Positions 6,975 to 63,899 of a stretch of DNA of 64,000 nt are shown here, in pieces. Position 1 is the stretch's first letter. Each line of letters begins with the position of its first letter. The notes beneath the pieces were generated by a model. The model worked only from the letters and a program-made list of their open reading frames with translations. It did not search any database and was not told the DNA's origin. Both the position numbers and the translations under genes were made by a program. The stretch is from an uncultured Bacilli bacterium (GTDB taxonomy: Bacteria; Bacillota_I; Bacilli_A; RF39; UBA660), in the NCBI GenBank assembly GCA_934098665.1, contig CAKOOO010000001.1:30823-94822 (forward strand), read 5' to 3'.

Positions 6975-9128
6975 TTAATTTATTACAAAAGGATTAGTAT
7001 ATGAGCCATCTCCTGAAGATATTTCAGTGCCAGGTTTGATGGAAACGACCGAGCGCACACCCCCCGAGTAGTTCACGATGCTGTAGTAGCTCCACCCAGC
7101 GGAGTTCACTGCCCTGACGACGGCGCTGTAGATGCTGTTAAAGTAGTAGGGAGAACCAAGCCATACATATTGTCCATTATTAAAGTAATGACTACTTCCA
7201 TAATTTGCTAACCTTAATTCTGGTGCTGTTAATAATCCTATAGGATATTTTAATTGTGCTTTTGGATTATTTACACTAAATCTATCTGTTTCATTTGCAC
7301 ATGCCAAGTTTTTATTATTTTCATCATAGTTTTTAAATTCTAATGAAGTCGTTGTACTTCCGCCGTTTGGATTCCATCCATTTGAAGATAAATTAGTTAT
7401 GGTTCTATCATTACAAAATACTGTATCTTCTAGTTTACCTTCATATTTATCTTTTATATTTTTTTCATACCAACTATCTATATATGCTTTTATTGTACTA
7501 TCTTTTGTATTTACATCATTATCATATAGCATTTCATTTAAGGCATCATCTACAGATTTTCCATTTGTTAGCGTTATGTAATATGGAGTACCACCATCAA
7601 TAGCATATACATAATAAATTGATGTACAGCTATTACCATTTGTTAAGCATGTATAATGGTGTGTATTTACATTTGTTTTATTTGTACTCCATGTATCTGT
7701 ATTTATTGTCGTAGTATTAGTTAATGTATATGTTCCATTTGCATATGTAAATGATGAACCAAATACATAATCACTTCCATTGTCTGTTCCATCTACATCA
7801 CCATTTGACAGTGAGTAATAATAAATGTAATATCCACTATATCCCACTATATGATATACATTTGTACATGTTTCAGTTGTAGAACTACTATTACATGTGT
7901 ATTTTCCTACTAATGTACTTATATTTGAATCTGTTACATTTAATGTTGTCGCATTTGTTAATGTGTATTTTTTAGTGCTGTTATCATATGTTACTGCATC
8001 GGCATAAGCTTTTGTTCCACTGAAATATGTACTATTTACTATTGTTTTAGTTGAGTACGTATATACTTTGTTTTCATTATACATATATCCTACATATGCT
8101 AGTGAATTATCATTACTATTAAATTTACTTGTTCCTATTTGTGAATCTGTTCCTGTATTATTACATGTTTTTATTATGCTATTTACTTTTCCAAAACTAA
8201 ATATTACATTATTTCTTGTATTATTTCCACTCGTCCATGAATATTTTCTTGTAAAAACTATCTTTATTACATCTGATGTTGTTAAATCTTTAAAACTTAT
8301 TTGTCCTGTTATTATTCCCGTAAATTTACCTTGACTTACATCATCTTTAAATATTTCTACATTTATGTTATTTAAAGAATCATACATTGATAAATCAAAA
8401 TTTAAAACGTAGTTTCCATTTGATGGTGCTGTAAATGATATTGTTGAACTATTTGTTCCAGTATTTGTACTTGTCCATGTTTTATTTGTTTCATCAAAAT
8501 TATATGAATATGATGTATCATTAATTAAGTTTGAATATTCTGACTGATTTAATGATTCTGAAGTATAAAAATCTTTTTGAACGCCATTATATACTATTTT
8601 AACTCCACCGGTATCTGTAGTTCTTACTATTTTCCAACAATAGTTTGCAAAAAGTACATTGTTATTTTCTACATTGCCAGTATAGTAATATATATTATTT
8701 GCATATGTTGTTGTATCACCATAATCTGCTCCATTATATAGTTTTACAAATTCATCACCATTATTATATCTTTTCTTAACTATACCATATAAAGATGTAT
8801 CTTCCTTATAATCAAAATACAAATAGCATTTATCACTTCCTATAAATGAAAATGATACTGTTCCTGTAGAGTTATCATAACTAGTTACTTGTCCATTATT
8901 TTCACAATGCGTTTTTTCTTCATTTAATATATAATCACCTTTTGGTATATCTTTTGAACTAGACTTGGTATAATCAGTTGCACCATTTTCTTTTATCATT
9001 ATAGATAATTTTTCTTCTTTAATAGGTTTATTTTTACTCAAATTATTTTGTTTTAATTTATAGGTTAAAATTAAGCTTAAAACACCTACTATTAAAAATA
9101 CGAACAACACTATTTTTTTCTTTTTCAT
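6975..9128 (-). CDS. membrane-anchored variable surface protein, paralogue A1 (717 aa)
   Basis: N-terminal signal-anchor MKKKKIVLFVFLIVGVLSLIL. Shares a Cys-containing N-domain with the 24032 and 42194 genes and a ~600-aa core with the 30206 gene. C-terminal WLGSP...GGVRSVVSI...GDGSYTNPFVI module. RBS AAGAGGAG. Confidence 0.85.
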   Translation of the reverse strand: MKKKKIVLFVFLIVGVLSLILTYKLKQNNLSKNKPIKEEKLSIMIKENGATDYTKSSSKDIPKGDYILNEEKTHCENNGQVTSYDNSTGTVSFSFIGSDKCYLYFDYKEDTSLYGIVKKRYNNGDEFVKLYNGADYGDTTTYANNIYYYTGNVENNNVLFANYCWKIVRTTDTGGVKIVYNGVQKDFYTSESLNQSEYSNLINDTSYSYNFDETNKTWTSTNTGTNSSTISFTAPSNGNYVLNFDLSMYDSLNNINVEIFKDDVSQGKFTGIITGQISFKDLTTSDVIKIVFTRKYSWTSGNNTRNNVIFSFGKVNSIIKTCNNTGTDSQIGTSKFNSNDNSLAYVGYMYNENKVYTYSTKTIVNSTYFSGTKAYADAVTYDNSTKKYTLTNATTLNVTDSNISTLVGKYTCNSSSTTETCTNVYHIVGYSGYYIYYYSLSNGDVDGTDNGSDYVFGSSFTYANGTYTLTNTTTINTDTWSTNKTNVNTHHYTCLTNGNSCTSIYYVYAIDGGTPYYITLTNGKSVDDALNEMLYDNDVNTKDSTIKAYIDSWYEKNIKDKYEGKLEDTVFCNDRTITNLSSNGWNPNGGSTTTSLEFKNYDENNKNLACANETDRFSVNNPKAQLKYPIGLLTAPELRLANYGSSHYFNNGQYVWLGSPYYFNSIYSAVVRAVNSAGWSYYSIVNYSGGVRSVVSIKPGTEISSGDGSYTNPFVIN
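7041..7151 (-). other. GC-rich NNC-codon patch (candidate DGR variable region) in A1
   Basis: Hand count gives about 58% G+C in a ~25% G+C gene. 23 of 37 codons end in C (TAC, AAC, AGC, ATC, GCC, GTC, CGC), which is atypical of the surrounding AT-ending codon usage. Encodes PYYFNSIYSAVVRAVNSAGWSYYSIVNYSGGVRSVVS. Confidence 0.55.
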
Positions 9129-9174
9129 AAACTCCTCTTTTTGCCCGTAAATACGGCATTGAGTTTTTTTATAT

Positions 9175-9299
9175 TAGATACATTTAAGAAAATACGAACG
9201 CCTATTTACGTACCTTACATCTTAATAATACACTATTTTTTATAAATTTTAAAGTCTAAATAACGATTTTACGCTATATAATTTTCTTAAATGTATCTA
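9175..9299 (-). promoter_or_regulatory. invertible promoter cassette 1 (promoter faces gene A1: ON)
   Basis: Perfect 19-bp inverted repeats: TAGATACATTTAAGAAAAT at 9175-9193 and its reverse complement at 9281-9299. The 87-bp core carries, on the minus strand, TTTAAA (9253-9248), 17 nt, then TATTAT (9230-9225). The homologous core is inverted at loci 3 and 4. Confidence 0.8.
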
Positions 9300-15134: not shown

Positions 15135-15689
15135 TTTATTCACTTCCTTTTTATTTAGTTTCATTTTAAAAAAATACTTTCTAATTACACTTTTTAACTA
15201 AATGATATTATATCATTGTTTTGTCTTTTAATAAAGTCTAATGCTTTAAAATATTTATCTTCGCATTCCGCAATTTCATCAAACTATTGAATTGCTAACT
15301 CAGTATCACAAAACTTCCGTTTCACCGATATTCTCTCCGAGCTACACCCATTACTTGTGTCTGTGGCTGTGCAGGAGTATCTTTAATAATGCACTATCTC
15401 TAACAGGAATGTACTTGATGAATGTGTATCAAATTTTCAAAAAATATTTCTTGCTCTTCTAAAAATAAAATAAAAAGGTGTAGAAAGTATTAACTTTCTC
15501 TCACCTGTTTCCACACTCAAATTTAACTTTTAAAGTCATAATTTCTATAGAATTATAATATAGAAATATTGCTACCTCTTATGAAAAATTAACTAATAAT
15601 GCGTTTATCATCATTCATCATCTTCATTACTAAAAATCTCGTTTGCTATAGCAATTACTGCCATTACATCCGTAAATCTAAAATGATTA

Positions 15690-16084: not shown

Positions 16085-17911
16085 CTAGTTATTAAATTTT
16101 CTTTTATAAAGTACTGCTCCAGCAAGTCCTAATAATGACACACCGGTAGTAATAATCCAAGTACTAACATTATCTAATGTATTAGGATTTTCCAAATTAT
16201 TACCACCAATAACATACGTACTAAAATGATCAGTTTCAAATACTAAATAATCACCTTCTATTTTTACATCATGTTTCTCTATCTCACCATTATCTTTAAC
16301 ATAATAAGCAGTTAAATCTAATTTTCTAAGTTCATCATTAAGAGGTACATAAACCTTAAATACACCATTTTCTAATTTAGAAATATTTTTATTTATTGAA
16401 TCAGAAAATAATTTTAAATCTACTACTAAACCATTATTAATATTTACTTTCTTTAAGAACTCTTTATATTCATCACTTTTAGCATCAATAACTACCGTAT
16501 TAATTTTAGAATCTAGTGGCACTTCTGAAGAATCAGTTTTAATTGAAATATCAGTTAAAGCATCTACTGTATTCATTACAGGTGTTCTCATTTTTGATGA
16601 ATCCTTAGCAATAAAATAATAATATTCTTCTTCACCAATAGTAACTTTATAGTATTCACCAAGTGTTTTATTAACATCAACTATATCTTTTAAAGATAAT
16701 CCTCCAAAATCATTAATATCAGCAATTTGTCCAGCATATTCTATTTTTACATTTGCTTTTGGAATATATTTATTAACTCTATCTAAAGCCGCTTTAATAT
16801 AAGCTTCTCTAGTATTTTCGGTTTCATCTGGTACATATAAAACGTTATTTTGTTTTACACCAGTAGTATCAACATAAGAATATATAACTCCATCAAATAA
16901 TAGATTTAAGAAACCAAAACAACCACTTGTAAATTGATCATCCCATCCAGCTCTTGTGTCTAACTTAGTTCCAATATTCATATATCCAATCTTATTTTGA
17001 AATTCAGAAGAATAATTAATTATTGAATTAACTGAATCAATCCACTCTCCAAAACTAGGAAAAGCATATTTATAATTAATTGTTTCTAAATCTTCCATCA
17101 AAAATAAATGGTCTTCTATATTTTGATTATCAACTACAAACGTCTTAGCATAACCATCTAATCTATTTTTTATTTTTAAATTAGGTGTTGCAAATTCAAA
17201 AGTAGTTTCGTAAGTCTTTTTTCTATAAGTTTTTACCTTATCAGAGATATTAATCATGCATTTATTTTTCTCATAGCATCCACCAAAAATACTATATTTA
17301 TCAGTATCATATTTACTCAAAGCTGAAGTAATAGCTGTATCAGAAAATATAGAATCATCTAGTGGATCAACACTAGCAACTTTTACTTTACCATCTTTAA
17401 GCATAGAATTATATATTGCATCCATTTCGGTAAAATCAAAATTATCGTTAAAGTTAAATCTTGTAATATCAAAATAAATATCCCTATCATCTAATGTATA
17501 TTTACTATACATATTTCTTAATGTCTTATTATCAGCATCTACTAGCTTGCTTTCCATCATACTGTTGCCATCTTCACCACTGATTGTTACACCAGCCATA
17601 AGCTCTGCACCAGTATAAGTTTTCTTAAAATTCTTAAAGTCTGATGTTAATGTGTAAGTATACTCTTCATCAGCATTAAGATTAAAACCAGTAATAACAA
17701 ATGAATACTTGCTGCCCTCTTGACCATTCATTGAATATTCAATATACTCACCAATATTAGTAACAGCACTGTATGAAGCACTACCTCCCATATCATTTTG
17801 CCCATTACACTTAATATCGCTGTAAGTTATATAAGATTCATCAGCAAATACTATTGTCGGCAAAAATAAAATAGCAACCAAAATCCCTAAAAAGTGTTTT
17901 ACCCTTTTCAT
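16085..17911 (-). CDS. secreted surface protein with C-terminal sorting-signal-like tail
   Basis: 608 aa with signal peptide MKRVKHFLGILVAILFLPTIVFA. The C-terminus is ...LENPNTLDNVSTWIITTGVSLLGLAGAVLYKRKFNN: motif, hydrophobic helix, basic tail. Confidence 0.7.
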   Translation of the reverse strand: MKRVKHFLGILVAILFLPTIVFADESYITYSDIKCNGQNDMGGSASYSAVTNIGEYIEYSMNGQEGSKYSFVITGFNLNADEEYTYTLTSDFKNFKKTYTGAELMAGVTISGEDGNSMMESKLVDADNKTLRNMYSKYTLDDRDIYFDITRFNFNDNFDFTEMDAIYNSMLKDGKVKVASVDPLDDSIFSDTAITSALSKYDTDKYSIFGGCYEKNKCMINISDKVKTYRKKTYETTFEFATPNLKIKNRLDGYAKTFVVDNQNIEDHLFLMEDLETINYKYAFPSFGEWIDSVNSIINYSSEFQNKIGYMNIGTKLDTRAGWDDQFTSGCFGFLNLLFDGVIYSYVDTTGVKQNNVLYVPDETENTREAYIKAALDRVNKYIPKANVKIEYAGQIADINDFGGLSLKDIVDVNKTLGEYYKVTIGEEEYYYFIAKDSSKMRTPVMNTVDALTDISIKTDSSEVPLDSKINTVVIDAKSDEYKEFLKKVNINNGLVVDLKLFSDSINKNISKLENGVFKVYVPLNDELRKLDLTAYYVKDNGEIEKHDVKIEGDYLVFETDHFSTYVIGGNNLENPNTLDNVSTWIITTGVSLLGLAGAVLYKRKFNN

Positions 17912-17959: not shown

Positions 17960-18346
17960 TTACCAAATTAAAGAGCAGACGTCAAATCTGATTTTACTTA
18001 ATTGTGTTGCTCTTAATGAATTTACTCTATATCCAACTGATATTATGGCATCTAAATTATAAAATTCAATATTTCTCTTAACACTTCTATTTTCTTCTTT
18101 TTGAACTAATTCTATTTTGGAATAAGTTGAATCTTTATCTAACTCATTTTCATTATAGATATTAATTAAATGCTTTGCTATTGCCGGTTGTTCTACATTA
18201 AATAATTCCGCAATAGTTTTTTGAGTCATCCATAAAGTTTCATTTTCATATCTTACTTGTATGCCTTTGTCTTTTTCTTGAAGTTTGAATGTTATAAATT
18301 TTTCAGTGCTACTTCTAATTATTAAATCTTTTGCCATTGTTATCAT
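17960..18346 (-). pseudogene. RhuM-family gene fragment (N-terminal ~113 aa only)
   Basis: Matches the RhuM N-terminus (...WMTQKTIAELF...YNLDAIISVGYRVNSLRATQ). Homology is lost where QFRxWAT should follow, and a stop comes soon after. Confidence 0.6.
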
Positions 18347-18518
18347 CTTCTTTGTCTAAAATAATAGTTTCCCATAAATCACTCTTACATAATTTTTATT
18401 AAAAATTGTAAAAAGGATTTTAATTAAAAGTTTTATAAAATAAGGGGTTTTAAGAGAGTTTATATAAGTCGTTCTTTACCAGTTGATTAAACTTTTATTA
18501 AACCCCATACCATTATTT

Positions 18519-19373
18519 TCACTCATTTTTTTCACCTTCTTTATTGTTTCCTAATAATTTTATCTTTTCAGCATTATTAAGTATATCTAATTGATACTTT
18601 GCAATTTCATTTAATATTTCAAATCTCTCTTTCTTACTTTTTCCTTCCTTAATTAATTCAGCATTATGTGATTCTAAGTTTGATAATACTGTTAATTCAT
18701 TTATTGAAGCATAATCTCTAACATTAGAATTCTTTGCTAAACTAGGATTAAGTTCTCTCCATTTTTTAGCCGTTGTATTAAAGAGCACTACATTTAGAAT
18801 ATCAGCCTCTTCAGCATACTTTAACCATTCACTATCTTTATAATAGTTATTATCAGGCAATATATAGTTTTTAATTGCATCGGTATGAATTAAATAATTG
18901 TTTTTAGTTAATATTCTTTTAACATCCCATTCTCTATTTTCATTTTCTAATGTCTTTAGTCTTTCAAATTCTTTTATCAAATATAATTTAAAAACAGGAC
19001 TAATAGATGAAGCAAATTCAAAAGCAATATCTTTATGAGCATAAGTTCCGCCGTACTTACCACGTTTGGAATATATACCAATTGCATTTGTTTTTTCACA
19101 CCATTCAGTAACACTTAATGTAAATGTGTGAAGCCCTGCACTTTTTCTAAACCCGTCGAATTCGACGGAATTAAAATCTGGATTATAAATTGATTCCCAA
19201 GTTCCTAAAAATTCTAAAGTAATTCTATTTCTTAACCAGTTTCTTATAATGTCATCAGTTTTTGATTTTCCTTCTTTGTATTTACCAAAATCAGAAATGC
19301 AAATATAATCATTATCATTAATGCTTGTTATATTAACTTTTATATTTTGAACTTCAATTGTTTTATTTATCAT
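18519..19373 (-). CDS. KilA-N domain protein
   Basis: 284 aa with a KilA-N-like N-terminal half (...YICISDFGKYK...WLRNRITLEFLGTWE...GGTYAHKDIAFEFASSISP...). Confidence 0.7.
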   Translation of the reverse strand: MINKTIEVQNIKVNITSINDNDYICISDFGKYKEGKSKTDDIIRNWLRNRITLEFLGTWESIYNPDFNSVEFDGFRKSAGLHTFTLSVTEWCEKTNAIGIYSKRGKYGGTYAHKDIAFEFASSISPVFKLYLIKEFERLKTLENENREWDVKRILTKNNYLIHTDAIKNYILPDNNYYKDSEWLKYAEEADILNVVLFNTTAKKWRELNPSLAKNSNVRDYASINELTVLSNLESHNAELIKEGKSKKERFEILNEIAKYQLDILNNAEKIKLLGNNKEGEKNE

Positions 19374-19559
19374 ATATTCACCTCCACTAACTATTTTAAT
19401 ATAAATTACATAGGGGTTGAAACGTCGTAATCACCTCTCTATGTCTATCATAAATAATACCAAAATTACTATATTTTCATCAAGTTTTAGTTGTTTTGCT
19501 CTTTATCTTGTTATAAAAACTATTTATTACTTTCCTCTAATAATAAATCAAAATCTGAT

Positions 19560-19936
19560 TTAAATAATTTCTGCAGTAGTTTGATGTGATACGGCAAAGT
19601 GCATTTTGTTTTGAAGCATTTTAAAAAATTTAATTGTTGTAGGAGATGTTTTATCATAATCCACACTTGTTGCATAAAAATCAGTAACTTTTTGATAAAA
19701 TCGTCTTTCTGATAATCTTATTTCTCTTATTTCGGCAAGTAAAGAATCATAATAGTCTTCATCAAAGAACACACCATTTGCCATTCTTTTTTTTATCTAT
19801 TATATAGTCTTTTTTTGAAAACTCTTTTAATATATAAGTTGCCCACCTTCTAAATTGGATGGCTCTATCTGAATTCAAATATTAGAAATTCTGCACTACT
19901 ACTTCTTACAATTAAATCTTTTGTCACTTTTATCAT
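19560..19936 (-). pseudogene. RhuM-family pseudogene (internal deletion, C-terminal truncation)
   Basis: MIKVTKDLIVRSSSAEFLIFE is followed by a frame break. Homology resumes at ...NSDRAIQFRRWATYILKEF...FFDEDYYDSLLAEIREIRLSERRFYQKVTDFYATSVDYD... and ends early at TTAEII*. Confidence 0.6.
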
Positions 19937-20128
19937 CTCCTTTAACTAAAGTTTTTATATATTTATCACTTTTTTTACCAGTTTTTATTGGCTTGTTGAT
20001 TCCAACAACCCAATTTTTCATTATTACCTTTCTATTTATTTATGTTTGTTATATTTTCTTTCTAACTAACGCATCTTTCATAAATAAAGTATAGCACAGT
20101 TTTAAATTTAAAAAAAGAAAATAATTTT

Positions 20129-20710: not shown

Positions 20711-21148
20711 TTAACAAACGCAGTCTACATAGCAATCAGTTAAGCATCTAATGCAACATAGACAAGAGCAGTCCATTGTGAAAAATGAATTTGTGGAAAC
20801 ATATGGATTTAAAGAAGTTTCATCTGGATTTGTAGCAAGAACTCTAAATGTACAACAATTTCCTTCGATTTTTTCAACCCTAAATACTGTAGAGCATGTA
20901 TCACTTGAAGTACCTGCCGGACAAGCTACAGCCTCTTTAGCTACTGGCATTGACCAAGGCTGTCCATTTGCACAACATGTATAAAGCATTACTGGTCTTG
21001 TATTACAAATAAGGCAGTTTGCACCCCCACCAAGCATTGGTCTATCACATGTATCTAAACAGTTTTCAGGGCAAGCATTATCTTGAAGCACAAGAATAAC
21101 TGATAGTATTTCATTTATGCAATTACCGCTTTTTTTTGCGTTATTCAT
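20711..21148 (-). CDS. cysteine-rich spore coat/exosporium protein, CotY/CotZ-like
   Basis: 145 aa with 19 Cys. Colinear with Bacillus CotZ as I recall it (...LQDNACPENC..., TVFRVEKIEGNCCTFRVL, C-terminal DCSCLCCIRCL). Confidence 0.65.
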   Translation of the reverse strand: MNNAKKSGNCINEILSVILVLQDNACPENCLDTCDRPMLGGGANCLICNTRPVMLYTCCANGQPWSMPVAKEAVACPAGTSSDTCSTVFRVEKIEGNCCTFRVLATNPDETSLNPYVSTNSFFTMDCSCLCCIRCLTDCYVDCVC

Positions 21149-24031: not shown

Positions 24032-25621
24032 TTAACTTTCTACTACATATGGATTATTCCACGTACCATCGCCTGATAAATTTACATCTTTTGATATTGA
24101 GATGACAGGGCGTATGGCATACCAAGTATTAGATGCATAAACACTTTGTGTGGCGTTATTAATATATACAGCAACTTCAATAAGACTATTTGTACTATTC
24201 CAGTAATACGATGTTCCTAACCAAAAACCAGCATTTGCATTTAGATACATATTTGATATAGCATTTTTAAAATCACTTCCAGCTAAAACTAATTCATCTG
24301 CTGTTAATAATCCAACCGGAATATTTAATTTTCCATTACCATTAGTCGTACTTACTGTAAATTTATCTTCACTATTAGGGCACAGCAAACTTGGACTTGC
24401 TGACACATATAATCTTTGATATGCATCAAAATAATAAGAATATGTAGGGTTAGACATCCAAGTTGTTCTTGTAGTCCTATCATTACAAAATATTTGTTCA
24501 GCAATAGCATCATTTAATTGATTTAAATTAGTATAATTATTGTACCAGTTTTCAATATACAATTTTATGTTACTATTATTTTGACTACCATGTTGTTCAC
24601 CAAGCGTATACATAAATCCGCCATATTCTGTGTTTGAAGCCGTATTATTAAATGGATTTATGCCAATATAATTATTATATGTTGTTAAAACAACCTTTGT
24701 ACTTTCAGTTGGTTCAGTAATTCCTGAGTAAATTAATCTTATTGAACCATCTCCATTTATTCTGACAATACGCCAATATATATCTTTCCCTAAAATTCCA
24801 GTTTGAGAACAACTACCACTAGATGGCTTTGTAGAAGAAAGAGAAGTAGCATCCATACACGCATAAGCATCACTTGTATATTTTCCAAATTTTAACCAGT
24901 TATTATCTACGGCTCCTCTAAAATAGTAAGATGTTCCTAAGTCATCTTCGATTGCATACATTCCTTCATTTTCAGTTGCTGCAATTGTAAAATCTGGTGT
25001 ATCTTTTGCTTCAATTGCATCTTTTCCACCATTATTATTTAAAATTAATAACACTGCTGATGACATAAAACTTATTTCATCAGATACTTTAACATTACCT
25101 GTGGCATCCTTTACCCACAAATATGGTGTATCACTTGTTATTGATGTAGATAGTGTATATGGTGTTGTTGGTATATTAAGCCACTCTTCAGGTTCAATAT
25201 CACTACTACTTGAAAGTCCATAACTTTTTAACATTACATTATCATTAAGTGTTACTGTTAAAATATCATTTTCTACTTTTAAGTCATCACTAATTGTTGG
25301 TGCTATGCTATCTTCATCAAAATATAATGTACATCTATCACTTCCTATAAAACTAAAACCCACTACACCACTAACATTATCATAACTTGAAATTTCCCCA
25401 TTATTTTCACAAAAACTTTTTTCTTTATTAAGTAAATAACTTCCTTTAGGAATATTTTTTGAATTTGTATAACTACTTGAATTATTTTCTTTTACATATA
25501 TTGCATAACTTTTATTTACTAACTTATTTTTATTTAAATTTATCTTTTTATTATATATAAAAATAATACTTAAAACTCCTATCAATAAAAATACGAACAA
25601 CACTATTTTTCCCTTTTTCAT
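24032..25621 (-). CDS. membrane-anchored variable surface protein, paralogue B1 (529 aa)
   Basis: Signal-anchor MKKGKIVLFVFLLIGVLSIIF. N-terminal ~185 aa homologous to the 42194 gene. C-terminal FWLGTSYYWNS...AIRPVISI...GDGTWNNPYVV module. RBS AAGAGGAG. Confidence 0.85.
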   Translation of the reverse strand: MKKGKIVLFVFLLIGVLSIIFIYNKKINLNKNKLVNKSYAIYVKENNSSSYTNSKNIPKGSYLLNKEKSFCENNGEISSYDNVSGVVGFSFIGSDRCTLYFDEDSIAPTISDDLKVENDILTVTLNDNVMLKSYGLSSSSDIEPEEWLNIPTTPYTLSTSITSDTPYLWVKDATGNVKVSDEISFMSSAVLLILNNNGGKDAIEAKDTPDFTIAATENEGMYAIEDDLGTSYYFRGAVDNNWLKFGKYTSDAYACMDATSLSSTKPSSGSCSQTGILGKDIYWRIVRINGDGSIRLIYSGITEPTESTKVVLTTYNNYIGINPFNNTASNTEYGGFMYTLGEQHGSQNNSNIKLYIENWYNNYTNLNQLNDAIAEQIFCNDRTTRTTWMSNPTYSYYFDAYQRLYVSASPSLLCPNSEDKFTVSTTNGNGKLNIPVGLLTADELVLAGSDFKNAISNMYLNANAGFWLGTSYYWNSTNSLIEVAVYINNATQSVYASNTWYAIRPVISISKDVNLSGDGTWNNPYVVES

Positions 25622-25667: not shown

Positions 25668-25793
25668 TAGATACTTTTAAGAAAATTGTACATCGATTTT
25701 ACGTATCTTACTATTAAATTATACATTAATTTTCATGATTTTTAAACCCTTTTTAACGATTTTTTCTTGTTCGTTTTTTCTTAAAAGTATCTA
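25668..25793 (-). promoter_or_regulatory. invertible promoter cassette 2 (promoter faces gene B1: ON)
   Basis: Perfect 18-bp inverted repeats: TAGATACTTTTAAGAAAA at 25668-25685 and its reverse complement at 25776-25793. On the minus strand the core carries TTTAAA (25746-25741), 17 nt, then TATAAT (25723-25718). Confidence 0.8.
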
Positions 25794-30205: not shown

Positions 30206-32689
30206 TTACTCTATTACAAAAGGATTTGTATATGAGCCATCACCTGATGATATTTCAGTTCCAGGTTTGATGGAAACGGCAGAGCGCACACCCCCCTCGC
30301 GGCCCACGTTTTCGTTCCAGCTACTGGAGCTCACTCCCAAGACGGCGGAGGTGTTAATGCCGAATCTGTAGGGAGAACTAAGAAAAACATTTTGGCCATT
30401 ATCAAAGTAATGACCATTTGAATTTGAATATCCCGCTAAACTTAATTCTGGTGCTGTTAATAATCCTATAGGATATTTTAACCTTGCTTTTGGATTATTT
30501 ACACTAAATCTATCTGTTTCATTTGCACATACTAAACTTTTATTCCTTAGACTATAATTTTTAAATTGTAATTCAGTTGTTGTACTTCCTCCATTTGGAT
30601 TCCAACCATTTTGTGATTCATTATCCATTGACCTATCATTACAAAATACTGTATCTTCTAGCCTATCATCATATTTATCTTTTATATTTTCTTCATACCA
30701 ACTATCTATATATGCTTTTATTGTACTATCTTTTGTATTTACATCATCGTTATATAACATTTCATTTAAAGCATCATTTACTGATTTTCCTCCAGTTAAG
30801 GTTATGTAATATAACGTTCCATTAGAATCATAATATACATAATAAACGGAGGTACAGCTATTACCATTTGTTAAACATGTATAATGATGAGTATTTACAT
30901 TTGTACTACTTGTACTCCATGTATCTGAATTTATTGTTACTGTATCAGTTAATGTATATGTTCCATTATATGTAAATGATGAACCAAATACATAATTACT
31001 TCCATTATCTGTTCCATCTACATCTCCTTTTGACAATGAGTAATAATAAATATAATTTGATTTATATCCTACTATATAATATACATTCGTACATGTTTCT
31101 GTTATAGAACTACTACTACAAGTATATTTTCCCACTAATGAACTTATATTTGACCATGTTACATTTAATGTTGTTGCTGTTGCACTATCAAGTGTATATT
31201 TACTCATACTACTATCATATATTACTGCATCGGCATATGCTTTTGTTCCATCGAAATATTCATTATTTACTATTGCTTTACTTGAAGGTGTATATACTTT
31301 GTTTTCATTATACATGTATCCCACATATGCTGGTGAATTATAATTACTATTAAATAGAGTTGTTCCTATTTGTGAATTATCTCCTATATTATTACATGAT
31401 TTTATTATACTATTAACTCTACCAAAACTAAATATTACATTATTTCTATCTCCTATCGTCCATGAATATTTTCTTGTATATATAATTTTTATTACATTTG
31501 ATGTAGTTAAGTTTTTAAAAACAATTTGTCCATTATCTGTTCCTGTAAATTTTCCTTGACTTACGTTATCTTTAAATATTTCTACATTTATACCATATTC
31601 ATAATCATTCATTGATAAATCATAATTTATTACATAATCTCCATTTGATGGTGCAGTAAATGATATTGTTGAACTATTTGTTCCAGTATTTGTACTTGTC
31701 CACATTTTATTTGTTTCATCAAATGTATATGGATATGTAGCATCATTACTTAAATTTACATATTCTGACTGACTTAATGACTCTGAAGTATAAAAATCTT
31801 TCTGTACACCATTATATACTATTTTAACTCCACCAGTATCTGTAGTTCTTACTATCTTCCAGCAGTAGTTTGCAAATAAAACATTATTATTTTCTACATT
31901 GCCATCAAAATAATATATATTATTTGCATATGTTGTTGTATCGCCATAATCTGCTCCATTATATAGTTTTACATATTCATCATTTGCATTATATCTTTTA
32001 GCAATTGCATTATATAAAGTTGGTTCTAATTCTTCAACTGTACAACTATTATTTTCTACATATATTGTTCCTGTAAACGATTTATCTACTAGTTGTGACT
32101 GGTCTAAATTTAAATTATAGTATCTTCCTGTTATATTTATATCTTGTATAGTACTTGTTCCACTACTTTTAATGGTGGCTCCTTTTACAAGTATTTTTTT
32201 TGCTCCTACTGTAGATGTTTTTGGTGTCCATGAGCTATCATAAGCAAAATTAGTTTCATTTACATAACTATTTGTTCCACTTGGGCTTTCTACTTGCATC
32301 GTAATTTCTTTTGTAGCTCCACTTGTTACATTTACTGTGTTTCCATATATTTCACTATCAAGATTATATTCATATACTACATCATATGTACATGTTGTTG
32401 TTACGTTTGGTGCTCCAGTTAAATTAACAGTAAGCGTTGCTGTATTTTCTGCGGCTAGTCCAGTATTTCCCTTAAACATACCACTTTTAGGTACTATTAC
32501 ATTTAAATTTGCACTTGTGGCAATAAAAGAGGTATTACCTATATCATTTGCATAAATATTTACCGCTACTTTATTTTCTAAATTTACTGTAAACATCCCA
32601 AAATATGCAAATGATGCCCCAATTAATATTAGAAGTAATACTAAACATGCTATAGCACTTTTTATAGTTATTTTCTTTTTATTTTTCAT
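30206..32689 (-). CDS. variable surface protein, paralogue A2 (827 aa) with a different N-terminal module
   Basis: Residues ~224-827 are closely similar to A1 residues ~104-717. The N-terminal ~220 aa are unrelated to A1 and begin MKNKKKITIKSAIACLVLLLILIGASFAYFG, resembling a TasA/camelysin SipW-type signal peptide. Confidence 0.85.
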   Translation of the reverse strand: MKNKKKITIKSAIACLVLLLILIGASFAYFGMFTVNLENKVAVNIYANDIGNTSFIATSANLNVIVPKSGMFKGNTGLAAENTATLTVNLTGAPNVTTTCTYDVVYEYNLDSEIYGNTVNVTSGATKEITMQVESPSGTNSYVNETNFAYDSSWTPKTSTVGAKKILVKGATIKSSGTSTIQDINITGRYYNLNLDQSQLVDKSFTGTIYVENNSCTVEELEPTLYNAIAKRYNANDEYVKLYNGADYGDTTTYANNIYYFDGNVENNNVLFANYCWKIVRTTDTGGVKIVYNGVQKDFYTSESLSQSEYVNLSNDATYPYTFDETNKMWTSTNTGTNSSTISFTAPSNGDYVINYDLSMNDYEYGINVEIFKDNVSQGKFTGTDNGQIVFKNLTTSNVIKIIYTRKYSWTIGDRNNVIFSFGRVNSIIKSCNNIGDNSQIGTTLFNSNYNSPAYVGYMYNENKVYTPSSKAIVNNEYFDGTKAYADAVIYDSSMSKYTLDSATATTLNVTWSNISSLVGKYTCSSSSITETCTNVYYIVGYKSNYIYYYSLSKGDVDGTDNGSNYVFGSSFTYNGTYTLTDTVTINSDTWSTSSTNVNTHHYTCLTNGNSCTSVYYVYYDSNGTLYYITLTGGKSVNDALNEMLYNDDVNTKDSTIKAYIDSWYEENIKDKYDDRLEDTVFCNDRSMDNESQNGWNPNGGSTTTELQFKNYSLRNKSLVCANETDRFSVNNPKARLKYPIGLLTAPELSLAGYSNSNGHYFDNGQNVFLSSPYRFGINTSAVLGVSSSSWNENVGREGGVRSAVSIKPGTEISSGDGSYTNPFVIE
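30272..30373 (-). other. GC-rich NNC-codon patch (candidate DGR variable region) in A2
   Basis: Hand count gives about 62% G+C, and 19 of 34 codons end in C. Encodes PYRFGINTSAVLGVSSSSWNENVGREGGVRSAVS. It sits at the same position as the A1 patch, but the sequence differs and is 3 codons shorter. Confidence 0.55.
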
Positions 32690-32811: not shown

Positions 32812-32936
32812 TAGGTAGATTTAAGAAAAATACATAACGTAATTTCGTTATTTAGACTTTAAAAATTACAAAAAATGATGTATTATTTAATAGTAAGGTA
32901 CGTAAAATCGAAGTAAGATTTTCTTAAATCTACCTA
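32812..32936 (+). promoter_or_regulatory. invertible promoter cassette 3 (promoter faces away from gene A2: OFF)
   Basis: Perfect 18-bp inverted repeats: TAGGTAGATTTAAGAAAA at 32812-32829 and its reverse complement at 32919-32936. The core carries, on the plus strand, TTTAAA (32858-32863), 17 nt, then TATTAT (32881-32886). The core is the reverse complement of the locus 1 core. Confidence 0.8.
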
Positions 32937-35322: not shown

Positions 35323-35347
35323 AAAAAATTTCCTTTCTTGTTTTATT

Positions 35348-35478
35348 AAATACCTCTTTGTTATAATTTATATTTTATTTTTTCAAAGTATTTTACGAAG
35401 TAAAACTTCTCCGCTTACACATCCGCTGAAAAATCGACAATGTAAGTCCTCGTCACCTATAACCGGCCATGCGCTATT
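35348..35478 (-). ncRNA. glmS ribozyme: glmS ribozyme/riboswitch
   Basis: Minus strand reads AGCGCAUGGCCGG...GUGACGAGGACUUACAUUGUCGAUUUUUCAGCGGAUGUGUAAGC.... This matches the conserved glmS ribozyme core (AGCGCC..., GACGAGG, AUCGAAUUUUCGGCGGAUGCC). It sits in the 5' UTR of glmS. Confidence 0.8.
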
Positions 35479-35519
35479 ATAAAAAAATACTCCTTTCGCT
35501 TTCTATAATTTCTAAAAAG

Positions 35520-42193: not shown

Positions 42194-43642
42194 TTAACCA
42201 ATATGATATGGACTGGTTTGAGAACCAGTGCCACCTACTATTTTTATAGCATCACTATCTAAATAGAAAGTTGGACGGACTGCAAACTGGTTGCTTCCGA
42301 CAAGGTAGTTATAGTTGTAGCTGATGTTCACAAACCCTGGCGAAAACAAAATAGCAGCATTATTCGAATTCGAAGAAAAAGGGGAAAGAAGCCATTCTCC
42401 ACTACTTACAAAACTACTTTGTGATGTAAACAACCAATCATTATTATAACAATCACTATATGATGAATCGTCCCAATAATATAATGCTTTTGCTCTACAA
42501 CTTGACTTATTTGTTGTAGAACCTCCCACTGTGGCATAACCATAATCACTTGGGTACATTAATCCAATTTTTGCAAATATACTGCTTGGATTACCACTAT
42601 ATATTGCACTTGTATTTCTTTCCTCTGTATAAATACCTTCTGCCGTTAAAGTACCATAATTCGATGAACTCGCTCCACCTAAATGCCATTTTGCATTTGC
42701 TACCCCACTAGATAGTTTACTATTTACATTTGAAGTGCCTAATATAGTAGTTAAATATGTACCATTAATTTCAGTTTTTAATGATACGATCTCCCAATTA
42801 TTTGTTCCTGATGAATTCCAATACTTTCCACTTGTTCCACCATAGTTATTTGTATCTATTACTTTTAATAGTTTTTTAGTTCCACTACTATTTGTTCCAT
42901 CACTTGAATACTCTTCATCAAATAATCCAATTATTCTAAATAATAATGAAGTACTTGAACATGTACCTTCTTTTTGATTATCTAAACATATGTAGTTATT
43001 TGGATTAGCTCCTTCATATCTTATTCCATTTTCGTCAAATATATCTGTATTGTTTGCTACCATTAATGTTTCAAATGATGTTCCAAGTGATATTGTAAAT
43101 TCTTTTATAGTTTTATTTCCTGCACTATCTTTTACCCATAGAAAATACGTACCTTCACTTTCTATAGTAATATTTAAATTATAGGTTGTACCAGTTATTT
43201 GTGTCCAACTTGTTGGCTCTACATTATTACTCATACTTAATCCATATCCAACCAAATTATTATTATCTGATAATGTAGCGGTTAATATATTTTCATTTAC
43301 TGTTAAATTATTTATTGTTGGTGCTATGCTGTCTTCATCAAAATATAAAGTACATCTATCACTTCCTATAAAACTAAAACCCACTACACCACTAACATTA
43401 TCATAACTTGAGATTTCTCCATTATTTTCACAAAAACTTTTTTCTTTATTAAGTAAATAACTTCCTTTGGGAATACTTTTTGAATTTGTATAACTACTTG
43501 AATTATTTTCTTTTACATATATTGCATAGCCTTTATTTACTAACTTATTTTTATTTAAATTTACTTTTTTATTATAGATAAAAACCATACCTAAAATCCC
43601 TATTATTAAAAATACGAACAACACTATTTTTTTCTTCTTCAT
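42194..43642 (-). CDS. membrane-anchored variable surface protein, paralogue B2 (482 aa)
   Basis: Start placed at MKKKKIVLFVFLIIGILGMVF (43642) after AAGAGGAG; the track ORF begins 10 codons upstream. N-terminal region homologous to B1. C-terminal EWLLSP...FAVRPTFYL...GGTGSQTSPYHIG. Confidence 0.85.
   Translation of the reverse strand: MKKKKIVLFVFLIIGILGMVFIYNKKVNLNKNKLVNKGYAIYVKENNSSSYTNSKSIPKGSYLLNKEKSFCENNGEISSYDNVSGVVGFSFIGSDRCTLYFDEDSIAPTINNLTVNENILTATLSDNNNLVGYGLSMSNNVEPTSWTQITGTTYNLNITIESEGTYFLWVKDSAGNKTIKEFTISLGTSFETLMVANNTDIFDENGIRYEGANPNNYICLDNQKEGTCSSTSLLFRIIGLFDEEYSSDGTNSSGTKKLLKVIDTNNYGGTSGKYWNSSGTNNWEIVSLKTEINGTYLTTILGTSNVNSKLSSGVANAKWHLGGASSSNYGTLTAEGIYTEERNTSAIYSGNPSSIFAKIGLMYPSDYGYATVGGSTTNKSSCRAKALYYWDDSSYSDCYNNDWLFTSQSSFVSSGEWLLSPFSSNSNNAAILFSPGFVNISYNYNYLVGSNQFAVRPTFYLDSDAIKIVGGTGSQTSPYHIG
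42272..42351 (-). other. shorter AAC/NNC-codon-rich patch in B2
   Basis: GTG AAC ATC AGC TAC AAC TAT AAC TAC CTT GTC GGA AGC AAC CAG TTT GCA GTC CGT CCA encodes FVNISYNYNYLVGSNQFAVRP. AAC/TAC/AGC codons are unusual for this genome. Weaker than the A1 and A2 patches. Confidence 0.35.
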
Positions 43643-43688: not shown

Positions 43689-43813
43689 TAGGTAGATTTA
43701 AGAAAATTACATAACGTAATTTCGTTAAAAAGGGTTTAAAAATTATAAAAATTAATGTATAATTTAATAGTAAGGTACGTAAATACGAGATAGAATTTTC
43801 TTAAATCTACCTA
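43689..43813 (+). promoter_or_regulatory. invertible promoter cassette 4 (promoter faces away from gene B2: OFF)
   Basis: Perfect 20-bp inverted repeats: TAGGTAGATTTAAGAAAATT at 43689-43708 and its reverse complement at 43794-43813. The core carries, on the plus strand, TTTAAA (43735-43740), 17 nt, then TATAAT (43758-43763). The core is the reverse complement of the locus 2 core. Confidence 0.8.
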
Positions 43814-48189: not shown

Positions 48190-49944
48190 TTAGTTCATTT
48201 TTTTCTTAAGTATTAATGCAGTTGCTCCTAAAAGTGCTAAACTCATAAGAGTAACTGAAGTATAAACTAAAATTCCATCAACTGTATTAGGATTTTCTAC
48301 TTTATTAGTTGTATTAGAATTTTCTACTTTATCAGTTGTATTAGGTTTTTCTACTTTATCAGTATTATCTTTAGTTTCAGTTTTTTCTGGAGTATAGAAA
48401 CTAAGTTCAAATGTAGAGAAACTTTCTGTTTCAATTTCAATATATTTTTGTCCATTTTCTTCCTTAATTTCATATTCTTTAGTATCAATTACTGTTTCTC
48501 CATTTTTATGTACTACTTTTGCATGTGTAAATGTAATTTCATTAGGAACCGCAACTTTAACTTTTATTTTACCAGTTATTGCTTCATTTGGAAGTACTTT
48601 AGCTTCTTGATTAATTATATAATAAGGTTTAATATCAAGAACTAAAACACCTTTTTCTTTATCATAAGATTTAATTTCAGTAGACATTTTAACTTCAATT
48701 AAAGTGTTTTCTACTCCCTCGATTTTAGATGAATCTATAGCATCTTTTAACCCTGTAACAGTATCAGTAAGTTTTGCATCAGTTAATTCTTTAGCAACTT
48801 TTTCGTCTACTTTATCACTAACTTTAACTTCTGGAGTAGTAACAACTAATTCACCTTTGTTTTCACTTACTATAGTATACATTTCACCATTTTTAACAGC
48901 TTTTACACCTGTTACTAGTTTTACTCCACCTTTTTTAGCAACTATTTCATCAGTAAATGAACCACCAGAAATTTCAATTTCATCAGGTTTCAACATATCA
49001 ATGTTTCCATAGAATCTTCCACCTTTAACCTCAACTGAAGTTACTAGTTTACTATTTACAACATCATCTGCATTTTTTTGTGCTATGTAATGATAAATTG
49101 AATTTCCATATGCTGAATGGTATTCCCCACCTTCAATAGTAAGTTCAATATTTCCAGCATATCCATTATTTGATTCAATAGCAATTGCAGCACCCGTGGC
49201 ATTAATACCATCGCCATTATATGTACCTTTAACTTTCTCTCCAGTAGCATATATTGTAGCATTCTTAATATTAATTTTTCCGGCTTTTATACCAAATCCA
49301 CCTTTATCGCCTTCAATTGTAGCTCCATCAATATTCCAAATTGCATATCCAGCTGCATATAGTCCATAATCCTTACTAATAAATTTAGCAGTATTATAAA
49401 TGTTAATAACAGGACAATTTTTTATCCTTTTATTATTTCCACTTATAGTAAATGCAGGTTGTGGAACTTCACTAACAGATTTAAATGTACCTTTAAGATT
49501 TACTGTAACACCAAAAGCATCCCAGCTAATATATGTTCCATAATCTCCTTCTAAAGTTACATTTTCATCAACAGTAAGTGATGACCAATTTGTATCATTT
49601 TCATCTTCTGAACCATAAATAACAACTGGAGCAGCAAGATGCATAGTACCATTAATAGTACCTTTACCTGTAATTGTTAAGTAACCTTTATTAACTTTAA
49701 TTCTATTGTTTTGAGTTAAAATGTTATGATCATTTAAATCAAGTGTAACAGTTTTACCATCATTAACATTAATATCGCCAGTTAAAGTTAAATTTTCAGT
49801 TAACTTAGCCTCGCCGCCATTTTTAAAGACTTCGGCAAGTTCGTCTTCTGTTTTAACTTCTTTAGTTTCCGCAAATACAATTGAGGGCAAAATCATTGCA
49901 AAAACCATTACTAAAGTTAAAACAACTCTTTTTAGGTTTTTCAT
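48190..49944 (-). CDS. secreted surface protein (beta-helix-like repeats) with C-terminal sorting-signal-like tail
   Basis: 584 aa with signal peptide MKNLKRVVLTLVMVFAMILPSIVFA. C-terminus: DKVEKPNTT DKVENSNTT NKVENPNTVDG, a hydrophobic helix, then KKKMN. Confidence 0.7.
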   Translation of the reverse strand: MKNLKRVVLTLVMVFAMILPSIVFAETKEVKTEDELAEVFKNGGEAKLTENLTLTGDINVNDGKTVTLDLNDHNILTQNNRIKVNKGYLTITGKGTINGTMHLAAPVVIYGSEDENDTNWSSLTVDENVTLEGDYGTYISWDAFGVTVNLKGTFKSVSEVPQPAFTISGNNKRIKNCPVINIYNTAKFISKDYGLYAAGYAIWNIDGATIEGDKGGFGIKAGKINIKNATIYATGEKVKGTYNGDGINATGAAIAIESNNGYAGNIELTIEGGEYHSAYGNSIYHYIAQKNADDVVNSKLVTSVEVKGGRFYGNIDMLKPDEIEISGGSFTDEIVAKKGGVKLVTGVKAVKNGEMYTIVSENKGELVVTTPEVKVSDKVDEKVAKELTDAKLTDTVTGLKDAIDSSKIEGVENTLIEVKMSTEIKSYDKEKGVLVLDIKPYYIINQEAKVLPNEAITGKIKVKVAVPNEITFTHAKVVHKNGETVIDTKEYEIKEENGQKYIEIETESFSTFELSFYTPEKTETKDNTDKVEKPNTTDKVENSNTTNKVENPNTVDGILVYTSVTLMSLALLGATALILKKKMN

Positions 49945-59958: not shown

Positions 59959-60891
59959 TTAAATTTTACGATAGCATTTATTCATTAGAAAGTTCATAAT
60001 TTCATCATCAATGTCACTTTCATAATACTTTATAAGTAGATTTTTATATTCTGAAACTAAATTATCTGGTATAACTATTAAACCTTTTCCTTTGCTAATT
60101 AAATAATGATTAGCAAATATTACTGAAGTTCTTTTATTTCCATCAATAAACATTTGAGATTTAACTACATATAATAATAATTTAATACTTTTTTGAACAT
60201 CATCAATATCTAAACTAAGAATATTATTTAAATTATCTTTTATATCAGCCTCAATTGGAAGTTCAGGTGTCCAAGACGTACCACCAATTTTAACTGGAGT
60301 TGTTCTAAGACTTCCCGCTAAATAATAAAATCCTTCCTCAACAAATTTATTTATAGAACATAAAATATTATAATCAGTTTTACTTAAAATAACATTTTTA
60401 TTTAATATAAATTCCCAAGCGTGTTTTAAATTAACAACTTTTAATATATCATCAACAATCATATTATTTACTTTATTACCATTTATAATATTTTCTATTT
60501 CAGAAAGTGTTGTAGCAATTCCCTCAAGTATTGCTTGATTATAAATCGTATCTACTAAATGTTTTCTTGCAAAATCAATATTTTTAGCAACATCTAAAGG
60601 TAAATCTTCATCAAAATAATTTAGTTTATTTAATTCTTTTTCTATATTACGAATAGATTTTTTTAATGTTTTAGCTTTAATATTATTATTTAACACTAAA
60701 TTATATAATTCTTCTGTGTATTCACCCACATATTTTGTGGATTGTAAGCCATCCTCTTTTGTATGCAAATAGATATATTTTTTGCTATCTTTTTCTCTAA
60801 TTTCAATAGCTCCATATACAAGTTCATTAAGTAAAGTTACATATTGTCTTTTTTGATTCAATAAATTTAATATTTTTATTTGATTTTCCAT
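59959..60891 (-). CDS. Fic/Doc-family protein with a degenerate active-site motif
   Basis: Start taken at MENQIKIL (60891) after GGTGGTG. The C-terminal motif is QMFIDGNKRTSVIF; compare Doc HxFxDGNKRT, where His is replaced here by Gln. Confidence 0.6.
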   Translation of the reverse strand: MENQIKILNLLNQKRQYVTLLNELVYGAIEIREKDSKKYIYLHTKEDGLQSTKYVGEYTEELYNLVLNNNIKAKTLKKSIRNIEKELNKLNYFDEDLPLDVAKNIDFARKHLVDTIYNQAILEGIATTLSEIENIINGNKVNNMIVDDILKVVNLKHAWEFILNKNVILSKTDYNILCSINKFVEEGFYYLAGSLRTTPVKIGGTSWTPELPIEADIKDNLNNILSLDIDDVQKSIKLLLYVVKSQMFIDGNKRTSVIFANHYLISKGKGLIVIPDNLVSEYKNLLIKYYESDIDDEIMNFLMNKCYRKI

Positions 60892-60919
60892 ATCAACACC
60901 ACCGCTATCATTATACAAC

Positions 60920-60974
60920 AAAAAATAAAAAATGTGAAACTTTTTTAATATTTTTCTTATTAAAAGTTTCACAC
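60920..60974 (-). terminator. terminator hairpin, copy B (upstream of the fic-like gene)
   Basis: 12-bp stem TGTGAAACTTTT/AAAAGTTTCACA with the same loop as copy A, followed on the minus strand by a T-run. Confidence 0.55.
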
Positions 60975-60977
60975 TAA

Positions 60978-61178
60978 TTATCTTCGATATAAATTATATC
61001 TATATTCTCTTTCAGCCTCATGTTTTAAATAATTTGCATCTTTACAAATATCTTTCATAATTTTTTCTTTACTACAAATTCTATCTTCGCTTGCCTTAAA
61101 TTCTGCATAGATGTATATTCTTTTACAAGGAACCTCTAAACTATTTAAGGCCTCTTTTATAAAATTTAACATTACCAA
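60978..61178 (-). CDS. 66-aa hypothetical ORF (possibly a gene remnant)
   Basis: ORF with no convincing RBS. It is followed by terminator copy B, and the region upstream (61179-61551) is non-coding. Confidence 0.3.
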   Translation of the reverse strand: MVMLNFIKEALNSLEVPCKRIYIYAEFKASEDRICSKEKIMKDICKDANYLKHEAEREYRYNLYRR

Positions 61179-61551
61179 GTTTTAAAAGTAATACTATTAA
61201 ACTATTTAATATACTTTTTAAGAATATAAGGTTTACCAAATTTTCTTTTATTAAGAATCCTCTTTAATGTCCAATTCTTATTAAATGTTTAAAATCTAAT
61301 TTTAATACATTAAAAAACTTAGACATTTCTATCTAAGTTTAAAATTTTTTTTCGCTTTTAATTGCAGCTTGTACCACAGTTTAGTTCGGAATGCTTTGAT
61401 ATTTTTTTTCAACTAATTGACTTAACGTTTTTTCTTTTAAATTTTTTTATAAAAATAGGGCTCTATCCTAAAATAGACCCCTTACAAAAATGATTTAACA
61501 TTTTTTCCTTGCATAGATAATATATCATAAACATTTATCTATGTCAAACTA

Positions 61552-62541: not shown

Positions 62542-62652
62542 AATTACCCTCCTATTTGGATTTTTTAATAGATAATTATATTTTATCATAAATATTAATA
62601 TTTTTTTACTTTAGATACAAAAAAAACTGAGATTTTTTCCTACTACAATGGT

Positions 62653-63891: not shown

Positions 63892-63899
63892 CTTACACC

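Follow-up and report, generated by a model that had tools for sequence, protein, structure and literature searches.

In a 64,000-nucleotide stretch of DNA from an uncultured Bacilli bacterium (lineage RF39, UBA660; assembly GCA_934098665.1, contig CAKOOO010000001.1, positions 30,823 to 94,822; this whole stretch is referred to below as the window), we examined four genes of an unnamed protein family, A1, B1, A2, and B2. Each of them lies directly downstream of a short invertible DNA segment (inverton) that is bounded by inverted repeats (IRs) and carries a predicted promoter, and two of these segments are found in both orientations in different metagenomes. Two of the genes, A1 and A2, and more faintly B2, also contain near their 3′ ends a variable region (VR) of the type written by diversity-generating retroelements (DGRs). 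We propose, with a probability of roughly 0.65, that the DGR-written loops of these genes are historical and have become frozen into paralogues that are deployed by promoter inversion. The four genes are as follows.

A1 gene: 6975-9128, minus strand; 717 amino acids (aa), with an anchor, a two-Cys domain, a split lectin-type module, and a C-terminal VR
B1 gene: 24032-25621, minus strand; 529 aa, with an A1-like anchor and two-Cys domain and a compact C-terminal lectin-type module
A2 gene: 30206-32689, minus strand; 827 aa, with a distinct N-terminal module (~205-220 aa, signal GASFAYF) followed by the A-type core
B2 gene: 42194-43642, minus strand; 482 aa, with the best start at the ATG at 43642

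A preliminary description of this DNA had proposed that the four genes form a mosaic surface-protein family, and all four open reading frames (ORFs) are present as described, with modules that are shared in BLASTP comparisons. Judged by these shared modules, A1, B1, A2, and B2 are mosaic paralogues. The core that A1 and A2 were said to share at high identity extends over ~630 residues with 75% identity (A1 residues 88-716, A2 residues 206-826). The N-terminal anchor and two-Cys domain attributed to A1, B1, and B2 is likewise common to the three proteins, at 34-38% identity (A1 and B1, 34% over residues 1-239; B1 and B2, 38% over the full length). The C-terminal module had been assigned to all four proteins. 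This assignment holds for A1, A2, and B1, at 26-36% identity (36% between A1 residues 543-716 and B1 residues 349-527; 26% between B1 and A2), but B2 shares the module at the motif level only and has no BLASTP match to A2. The suggested comparison of A1 and A2 for gene conversion revealed no recent tract: no identical run exceeds 56 nt, and identity varies between 60 and 92% per 100 alignment columns.

The mosaic structure of the family extends beyond the window. Proteins P0002 and P0259 carry an A1-type and an A2-type N-terminus, respectively, on cores that are 94% identical, protein P0013 corresponds to A1 without residues 187-320, and C-terminal tails are swapped between clusters of relatives. 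Moreover, the A1 locus in another metagenome (L092:3731-5899) holds a 722-aa allele that is 65% identical to A1 and has a decayed VR (GC content at third codon positions, GC3, of 0.21). Because this second allele is found between flanks that are 98-99% identical to those of the window, the A1 locus is a hot spot of allele replacement within the species.

The GC content of the window is ~25%. The only two stretches of the 64 kb in which it reaches at least 60% (6985-7185 and 30213-30403) are the 3′ ends of A1 and A2, in agreement with the GC-rich patch that had been reported for these two genes. A weaker patch in B2 (GC3 of 0.52 versus 0.13 in the rest of the gene) had been overlooked. The three regions are located as follows.

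A1 DGR-type VR: 7037-7163, minus strand; hypervariable codons at 7059-7148; ends in the G-rich run GGGGGGTGTGCGCTC
A2 DGR-type VR: 30270-30390, minus strand; hypervariable codons at 30290-30370; 9 nt shorter than the A1 VR
B2 VR-like patch: 42281-42379, minus strand; partly decayed; GC3 of 0.52

In the A1 VR, the GC content rises to 63%. The GC3 values are 0.87 in the VR of A1, 0.78 in that of A2, and 0.19 at the equivalent position of B1, compared to 0.10-0.13 in the rest of each gene; the B1 position looks like a copy that has decayed to background composition. Codons of the form NNC account for 63% of all codons in the A1 VR and 56% in the A2 VR, but for 4-6% elsewhere in the two genes. Given that GC3 is 0.78-0.87 in the patches and 0.10-0.11 in the remainder of A1 and A2, the patches are not a product of chance. 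Across more than 100 homologues, the segment of ~30 residues that separates the motifs WLxSP and GVRP is hypervariable and has a high content of Y, S, N, G, and D, and the sequence on both sides of it is conserved.

Relatives of these genes are accompanied by DGR components. In 3 of 77 related loci (L051, L067, and L069), a reverse transcriptase (RT) gene is located directly downstream of the family gene; the RT has the motif IGAMTSQ...YxRYMDD and matches RVT_1 (E = 1.5e-16). The full order of target gene, template repeat (TR), Avd-like ORF (119-122 aa), and RT is present in L051 and L069. A repeat of 90-120 nt lies downstream of the family gene in L024, L051, and L069, and its mismatches to the patch of that gene fall at TR adenines in 92%, 94%, and 95% of cases. 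The L024 TR (L024:11721-11811) is found just downstream of a family gene that occupies the position syntenic with A1, beside rimP-nusA-infB, and neither an Avd nor an RT gene was found near it. This TR also matches the VRs of three other loci of the same metagenome-assembled genome (MAG; CAKOMR), with 81-100% of the mismatches at adenines, and CAKOMR thus has one TR and four VRs on three contigs. Because the L024 TR matches several VRs, a single TR has served several dispersed paralogues.

The patches of A1 and A2 align codon for codon with the TR of relatives, which encodes WLASPNNFNNNNANVRNVNTDGNLNNNNVNNTGGVRP, and their GC3 values fall among those of the DGR-linked VRs of relatives (0.67-0.90). 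Since relatives carry TR, Avd, and RT beside the same gene, we identify the patches as DGR-type VRs, and on the evidence of the alignment the A1 and A2 VRs are homologous to the templated VRs of relatives.

The family-linked DGR RTs (L069:12936-14393, L051:3175-4671, and L214:4001-5318) have a C-terminal region that resembles MutS domain I (PF01624, E = 5e-5), and many RT homologues carry the same precomputed Pfam pair (RT and MutS_I). The RT of L214 is split, and its cassette adjoins the genuine mutS gene.

The preliminary description had raised the possibility that these genes are hypervariable and that hypervariation and ON/OFF switching together form a two-tier system of surface variation. 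The DGR-type origin of the VRs is supported by the TR, Avd, and RT of relatives, but observations on this species speak against DGR operation here. We read the window together with 10 kb of its left flank and ~6 kb of its right flank, ~80 kb in total, and found no TR, RT, or AAC-rich tract in it; the window also lacks a second copy of the A1 or A2 VR. A single TR cannot serve as the template for both VRs, whose lengths differ by 9 nt. Seven contigs from several cohorts encode an identical A1 protein, and the sole other member of its 90% cluster has two differences, both located outside the VR. Every difference within the A2 cluster (n = 4) is also outside the VR. Ten clusters of close relatives have no VR changes at all, with up to 38 substitutions elsewhere. 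This test has the power to detect VR variation, because 16 of the 17 differences between the L069 target, which has a cassette in cis and served as a positive control, and its cluster members fall within the VR. Searches of IMG/VR and JGI metagenomes with a corrected degenerate TR pattern found nothing; the species is absent from these collections, and the result is therefore uninformative.

Our conclusion is that past DGR activity, which was historical or is at most episodic, produced the VRs of this lineage and that they have since been frozen. Of the two tiers, the inversion tier is active, but the DGR tier belongs to the past or is at most episodic, and the current diversity of the family is due to inversion, module shuffling, and allele replacement.

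A true two-tier system could nevertheless exist if a DGR located elsewhere in the genome acted in trans on the VRs of A1 and/or A2, rewriting them on rare occasions or under certain conditions, with the invertons gating expression. We consider this unlikely, but there are several observations in its favor. The composition of the A1 and A2 VRs is that of newly templated ones (GC3 of 0.78-0.87), the adenine-biased matches of one CAKOMR TR to four VRs on three contigs indicate that targeting in trans occurs in the family, and the L024 TR has no adjacent RT. The genome was also examined only over ~80 kb. However, a DGR of this kind would have left no VR variation in A1, A2, or any of the ten related clusters by a test that detects such variation at L069, and the 9-nt difference in VR length would require two TRs.

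Inversion of the promoter cassettes, the other component of the proposal of frozen loops deployed by switching, can be observed directly. The four cassettes of the window are as follows.

A1 predicted invertible promoter: 9175-9299; 125 bp, with 18-bp perfect IRs TAGATACATTTAAGAAAA; ON in the window
B1 predicted invertible promoter: 25668-25793; 126 bp; ON in the window
A2 predicted invertible promoter: 32812-32936; 125 bp; OFF in the window, with the promoter-like site directed away from the gene
B2 predicted invertible promoter: 43689-43813; 125 bp; OFF in the window

Beside an identical protein in each case, the A2 cassette has the OFF orientation in three assemblies (the window, L081, and L082) and the ON orientation in four (L083, L084, L085, and L221). 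Similarly, the B1 cassette, again with identical proteins, has the ON orientation in three assemblies (the window, L087, and L090) and the OFF orientation in three (L086, L088, and L089). For both genes, the two states are exact 125/126-bp reverse complements with identical flanks. The A1 cassette is ON in all five assemblies and the B2 cassette is OFF in all four. The A2 and B1 cassettes are switching between metagenomes. The earlier statement that each gene has its own invertible promoter agrees with the presence of four cassettes and with the orientation polymorphism of two of them between samples.

The A2 and B1 cassettes were in opposite states in all five samples that are readable for both (A2 OFF and B1 ON in three; A2 ON and B1 OFF in two). 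This sample is small, and at n = 5 coupling is indistinguishable from chance.

The four cassettes are 125-126 bp long and consist of perfect IRs of 18-19 bp with 89-90 bp between them. Because perfect repeats of this length recur at a constant spacing of 107-108 bp, the cassettes are not chance occurrences. The extended 30-nt sites are identical at 25-26 of 30 positions between the arms, and no cassette copies other than these four are present in the 64-kb window. The same type of cassette is located upstream of family genes in L004, L010, L011, and L012 (twice), in both orientations. The nine cassettes compared below are the four of the window and these five of relatives, and they represent five species-level lineages. 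With respect to the co-occurrence of the family and the cassette, four other lineages thus have the same cassette, but more distant relatives mostly lack it. Unrelated long IR pairs, 127-172 nt apart, are found upstream of distant family genes in L019, L023 (MAG CAKOIF), and L066, and these may be independently acquired invertons.

Each arm of a cassette consists of an outer half-site TTTTCCTAAA, a 9-nt asymmetric spacer (e.g., GTAGGTAGA), and an inner half-site TTTAAGAAAA, the reverse complement of which, TTTTCTTAAA, agrees with the outer half-site at 9 of 10 positions. The spacer is the same in both arms of each of the nine cassettes and varies between cassettes (TAGATACA, TAGATACT, TAGGTAGA, TATATACA, TATATAGA, and CTGGTAGA). 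In the core sites of tyrosine recombinases such as Cre, Flp, and Xer, a short homologous crossover region is flanked by two binding elements in inverted orientation. The anatomy of the cassette sites points to a tyrosine recombinase whose gene would be located elsewhere in the genome. A XerD-like tyrosine recombinase gene of L004, which ends at a distance of 109 nt from the cassette, is a lead to an enzyme that may act on it.

An extended −10 element (TGnTAnnnT) occupies the same internal place in all nine cassettes (TGTATTAT, TGTATAAT, TGGTATACT, and similar sequences), and several of the nine have a −35-like hexamer upstream of it. In A1, the hexamers TTTAAA-17-TATTAT are located on the gene strand at 9253-9225. 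The promoter-like site is directed toward the gene in A1 and B1 and away from it in A2 and B2, and no such site was found outside the invertible segment in the two upstream regions scanned (A1 and A2). We predict from these signals that the promoter lies inside the segment.

The motifs CGTAAATACG, within the segment, and CGTATTTACG, in the 5′ untranslated region (UTR), are conserved around the gene-proximal recombination site (9148-9165 and 9195-9215 in the window, and equivalent positions of the other cassettes), and similar GTATTT motifs are located outside the distal recombination site. CGTAAATACG and CGTATTTACG may be accessory protein-binding sites. A candidate hairpin in the 5′ UTR of the ON state was rejected (−2.5 kcal/mol, essentially no covariation).

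The cassettes could also be invertible without being promoters, either as an orientation-dependent switch that acts through a terminator or the UTR, as in Clostridioides difficile cwpV, or as a non-regulatory mobile IR element. The promoter call is made from consensus matches in AT-rich sequence, and the conservation of CGTAAATACG and CGTATTTACG beside the gene-proximal site is without explanation, both of which would fit such an element. We nevertheless regard this alternative as quite improbable, given the constant internal position of the extended −10 in all nine cassettes with a −35-like hexamer in several, the lack of promoter-like sites outside the segment in the A1 and A2 upstream regions, the near absence of support for the UTR hairpin, and the location of the cassettes only directly upstream of family genes. 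Finally, an origin of the GC-rich patches by horizontal transfer or by amino-acid or codon bias of a loop rich in Tyr, Ser, Asn, and Gly, for which the absence of a TR and RT from the window and the static sequence of the patches between samples might be cited, is hardly credible, because homology was tested and found in the codon-for-codon alignment with the TR-templated VRs of relatives, NNC codons are concentrated in the patches relative to the rest of the same genes, and the fixed and variable positions match the family-wide pattern.

Pfam and NCBIfam scans of the four window proteins and 37 family members detected no known family, which agrees with the earlier remark that the proteins were not recognised as characterised. 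A sequence-profile search of the PDB gave no match, and none of the sources consulted holds an annotation of the family. The AlphaFold2 model of full-length A1 (predicted local distance difference test, pLDDT, 88.6; predicted template modeling score, pTM, 0.80) has a transmembrane helix at residues 6-28, a small two-Cys beta domain at residues ~41-107, and a beta-rich body. The lectin-type module of A1 would be interrupted by a jelly roll that resembles carbohydrate-binding modules (CBMs; residues ~187-320) and by a beta-rich region. Foldseek results for the full-length model are dominated by the jelly-roll domain, with matches to CBM4-2, CBM86, CBM35, and C1q-like structures over ~150 columns (E = 1e-4 to 1e-3). 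We assign these matches to A1 residues 187-320 because P0013 lacks exactly that block.

The model of a C-terminal fragment of 198 residues (pLDDT of 67) had no significant Foldseek match in the PDB or BFVD; the domain is truncated in this fragment, which omitted the first hairpin of the lectin-type domain (CWKIVRTTDTGGVKIVYNG, ~360 residues upstream). Its weak top match was the structure of the Thomasclavelia ramosa IgA peptidase (E = 0.09). The VR-bearing module resembles DUF6273 in the order of its motifs, which is a hairpin with W-x-I-V-R, then WLxSP, and then VRP. DUF6273 is reported to be a C-type-lectin-like domain and a DGR target in phage tentaclins (PMC10743442), and it forms the N-terminal domain of the T. 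ramosa IgA peptidase (PMC12402451). At E ≤ 0.1, the Pfam model of DUF6273 (PF19789) matched none of the four proteins of the window and none of 37 A-type members, and sub-threshold matches were obtained only for the B2-type relatives P0024 and P0074 (21.4 and 18.7 bits versus a cut-off of 23.5). We suggest that the four proteins are probably adhesins or ligand binders with an N-terminal anchor, and that they are probably built from a small two-Cys beta domain, an optional CBM-like jelly roll, and a C-terminal DUF6273-like module.

According to the mechanism that we propose, a site-specific recombinase would flip the 125-126 bp promoter cassette that belongs to each gene and would thereby turn each gene ON or OFF independently. 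The loop between WLxSP and GVR(P/S) in A1, A2, and, faintly, B2 would have been written by a DGR in the past, and in relatives a DGR would still write the same binding loop. In this lineage, the DGR would no longer be encoded near the genes, the VRs would have become fixed across hosts, and their diversity would be frozen into a small repertoire of paralogues. This frozen repertoire would be put to use through promoter inversion, and its renewal would come from module shuffling and the replacement of whole alleles.

Several points weigh against this proposal. Our view of the genome is confined to ~80 kb, and a trans-acting DGR could be located elsewhere. The high GC3 of the VRs in a genome with 25% GC suggests that the last templating was not ancient. 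No recombinase ORF of this species was found in the window and 6-10 kb past each of its ends, and the XerD-like gene of L004 scores just under the XerD equivalog cut-off and may be a housekeeping enzyme. The promoter call depends on consensus similarity within AT-rich DNA, and 1.7-2.9 matches per region arise in shuffled sequence. With respect to the proteins, the structure search gave no confirmation of a lectin fold for the VR-bearing module, and surface location and ligand binding are deduced from sequence features only.

The arrangement is similar to that of the Bacteroides fragilis capsule loci (Mpi) and Escherichia coli fimS (FimB/FimE) in that short IR-flanked segments, with a promoter that is predicted in the present case, are located directly upstream of surface genes, ON/OFF switching is reversible, and unlinked loci have a common IR consensus, which implies one global invertase. 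The invertible promoters of B. fragilis and fimS occur in mixed states in gut populations, and Mpi is a serine recombinase. In contrast to the Mpi and fimS systems, the cassettes described here belong to low-GC Bacilli, have unrelated IRs and sites that look like tyrosine-recombinase core sites with a locus-specific spacer, and precede single protein genes instead of polysaccharide or fimbrial operons.

In Clostridioides difficile, the tyrosine recombinase RecV, which is encoded elsewhere, flips the cwpV, flagellar, and cmrRST elements. These switches share with the window a Firmicute host and several short elements upstream of surface-protein genes. The cwpV switch is located downstream of its promoter and is terminator-based, whereas the predicted promoter here is inside the element. 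The Mycoplasma vsa, vsp, and vpma systems are also multi-copy surface families of wall-poor or low-GC organisms related to Bacilli, in which the expression of paralogues is switched. In those systems, a Xer-like tyrosine recombinase moves one expression site or promoter between clustered genes. Here, unlike in Mycoplasma, each dispersed gene has its own flip-flop promoter, and the proteins are unrelated.

Similar to the C-type-lectin-fold DGR targets Mtd (of Bordetella phage BPP-1), TvpA of Treponema denticola, and tentaclins, the A1 and A2 proteins have a VR at the end of a putative lectin-type module, with NNC codons templated from AAC and a G-rich end after the VR. Unlike in known DGRs, the window has no TR, Avd, or RT, the VRs are invariant between hosts, and the module is below the Pfam threshold for DUF6273. 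The RT of relatives has an additional MutS_I-like C-terminal domain, and the targets are under inverton control, which also distinguishes this family from known DGRs. In a full-text literature search, no account of DGR targets controlled by invertible promoters was found. Both kinds of element are well known individually; the control of DGR-type targets by invertons appears to be undescribed so far.

The family comprises more than 2,900 homologues, almost all of them metagenomic, whose hosts are uncultured gut and rumen Bacilli. Proteins identical to those of the window were found only in human-gut metagenome assemblies (from the Hadza and other cohorts). In the GTDB species set, from which the species itself is absent, the nearest genomes are MAGs that bear the labels uncultured Bacilli, Anaeroplasmataceae, and Mycoplasma sp. 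CAG:472, and their proteins have at most 67-68% identity to A1. Nearly all genes of the window are on the minus strand. The neighborhood is that of a Firmicute chromosome with housekeeping genes (infB, nusA, rimP, topA, rnhB, ylqF, glmS with its ribozyme, recD2, uvrC, ackA, thiI, ezrA, and a sigma factor gene) and spore-related genes. The two flanks contain only housekeeping and toxin-like genes. Two RNA features were detected in the window.

glmS ribozyme: 35339-35486, minus strand; upstream of glmS, Rfam RF00234, 60.5 bits; ordinary
pemK RNA, borderline: 15306-15386, minus strand; Rfam score of 35.0 bits versus a gathering score of 34.8

The window has several other features. An island of toxin- or defence-like genes at 59959-63903 consists of Fic (59959-60972), Abi_2 (61552-62589), and HopA1-like (62653-63903) genes and extends just past the end of the window with an AAA_33 protein. 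Two more predicted secreted proteins with C-terminal membrane anchors (48190-49944 and 16085-17911, both on the minus strand) do not belong to the A/B family, and the former has 27-nt tandem repeats at 48250-48384 whose units encode KVENxNTTD. A KilA-N domain protein (18519-19373, in the region 17960-20000) is located near a duplicated 73-nt segment (18288-18360 and 19878-19950, 79% identical), the copies of which lie at the starts of two small ORFs. Lastly, a very Cys-rich protein of 145 aa (20711-21148, minus strand), whose DNA is locally enriched in GC (49% at 20875-20981), may be a component of the spore coat or exosporium.

Among the programmed routes by which gut bacteria vary their surface, invertons and DGRs are the two best known, and they are usually described separately. 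In the window, the signatures of both are found together in one set of genes. These genes belong to a large unnamed family of proteins, which are probably major adhesins or antigens of organisms that are typical of gut microbiomes in non-industrialised populations. The data suggest an evolutionary hand-over, in which diversity generated by a retroelement was fixed in paralogues that were subsequently deployed by promoter flipping and reshuffled by recombination, and they provide a concrete, testable case for the domestication or loss of hypermutation systems. If a trans-acting DGR does operate in this species, hypermutation of the loop would be combined with independent ON/OFF control of each copy, and the family would amount to a receptor repertoire with a clonal pattern of expression.

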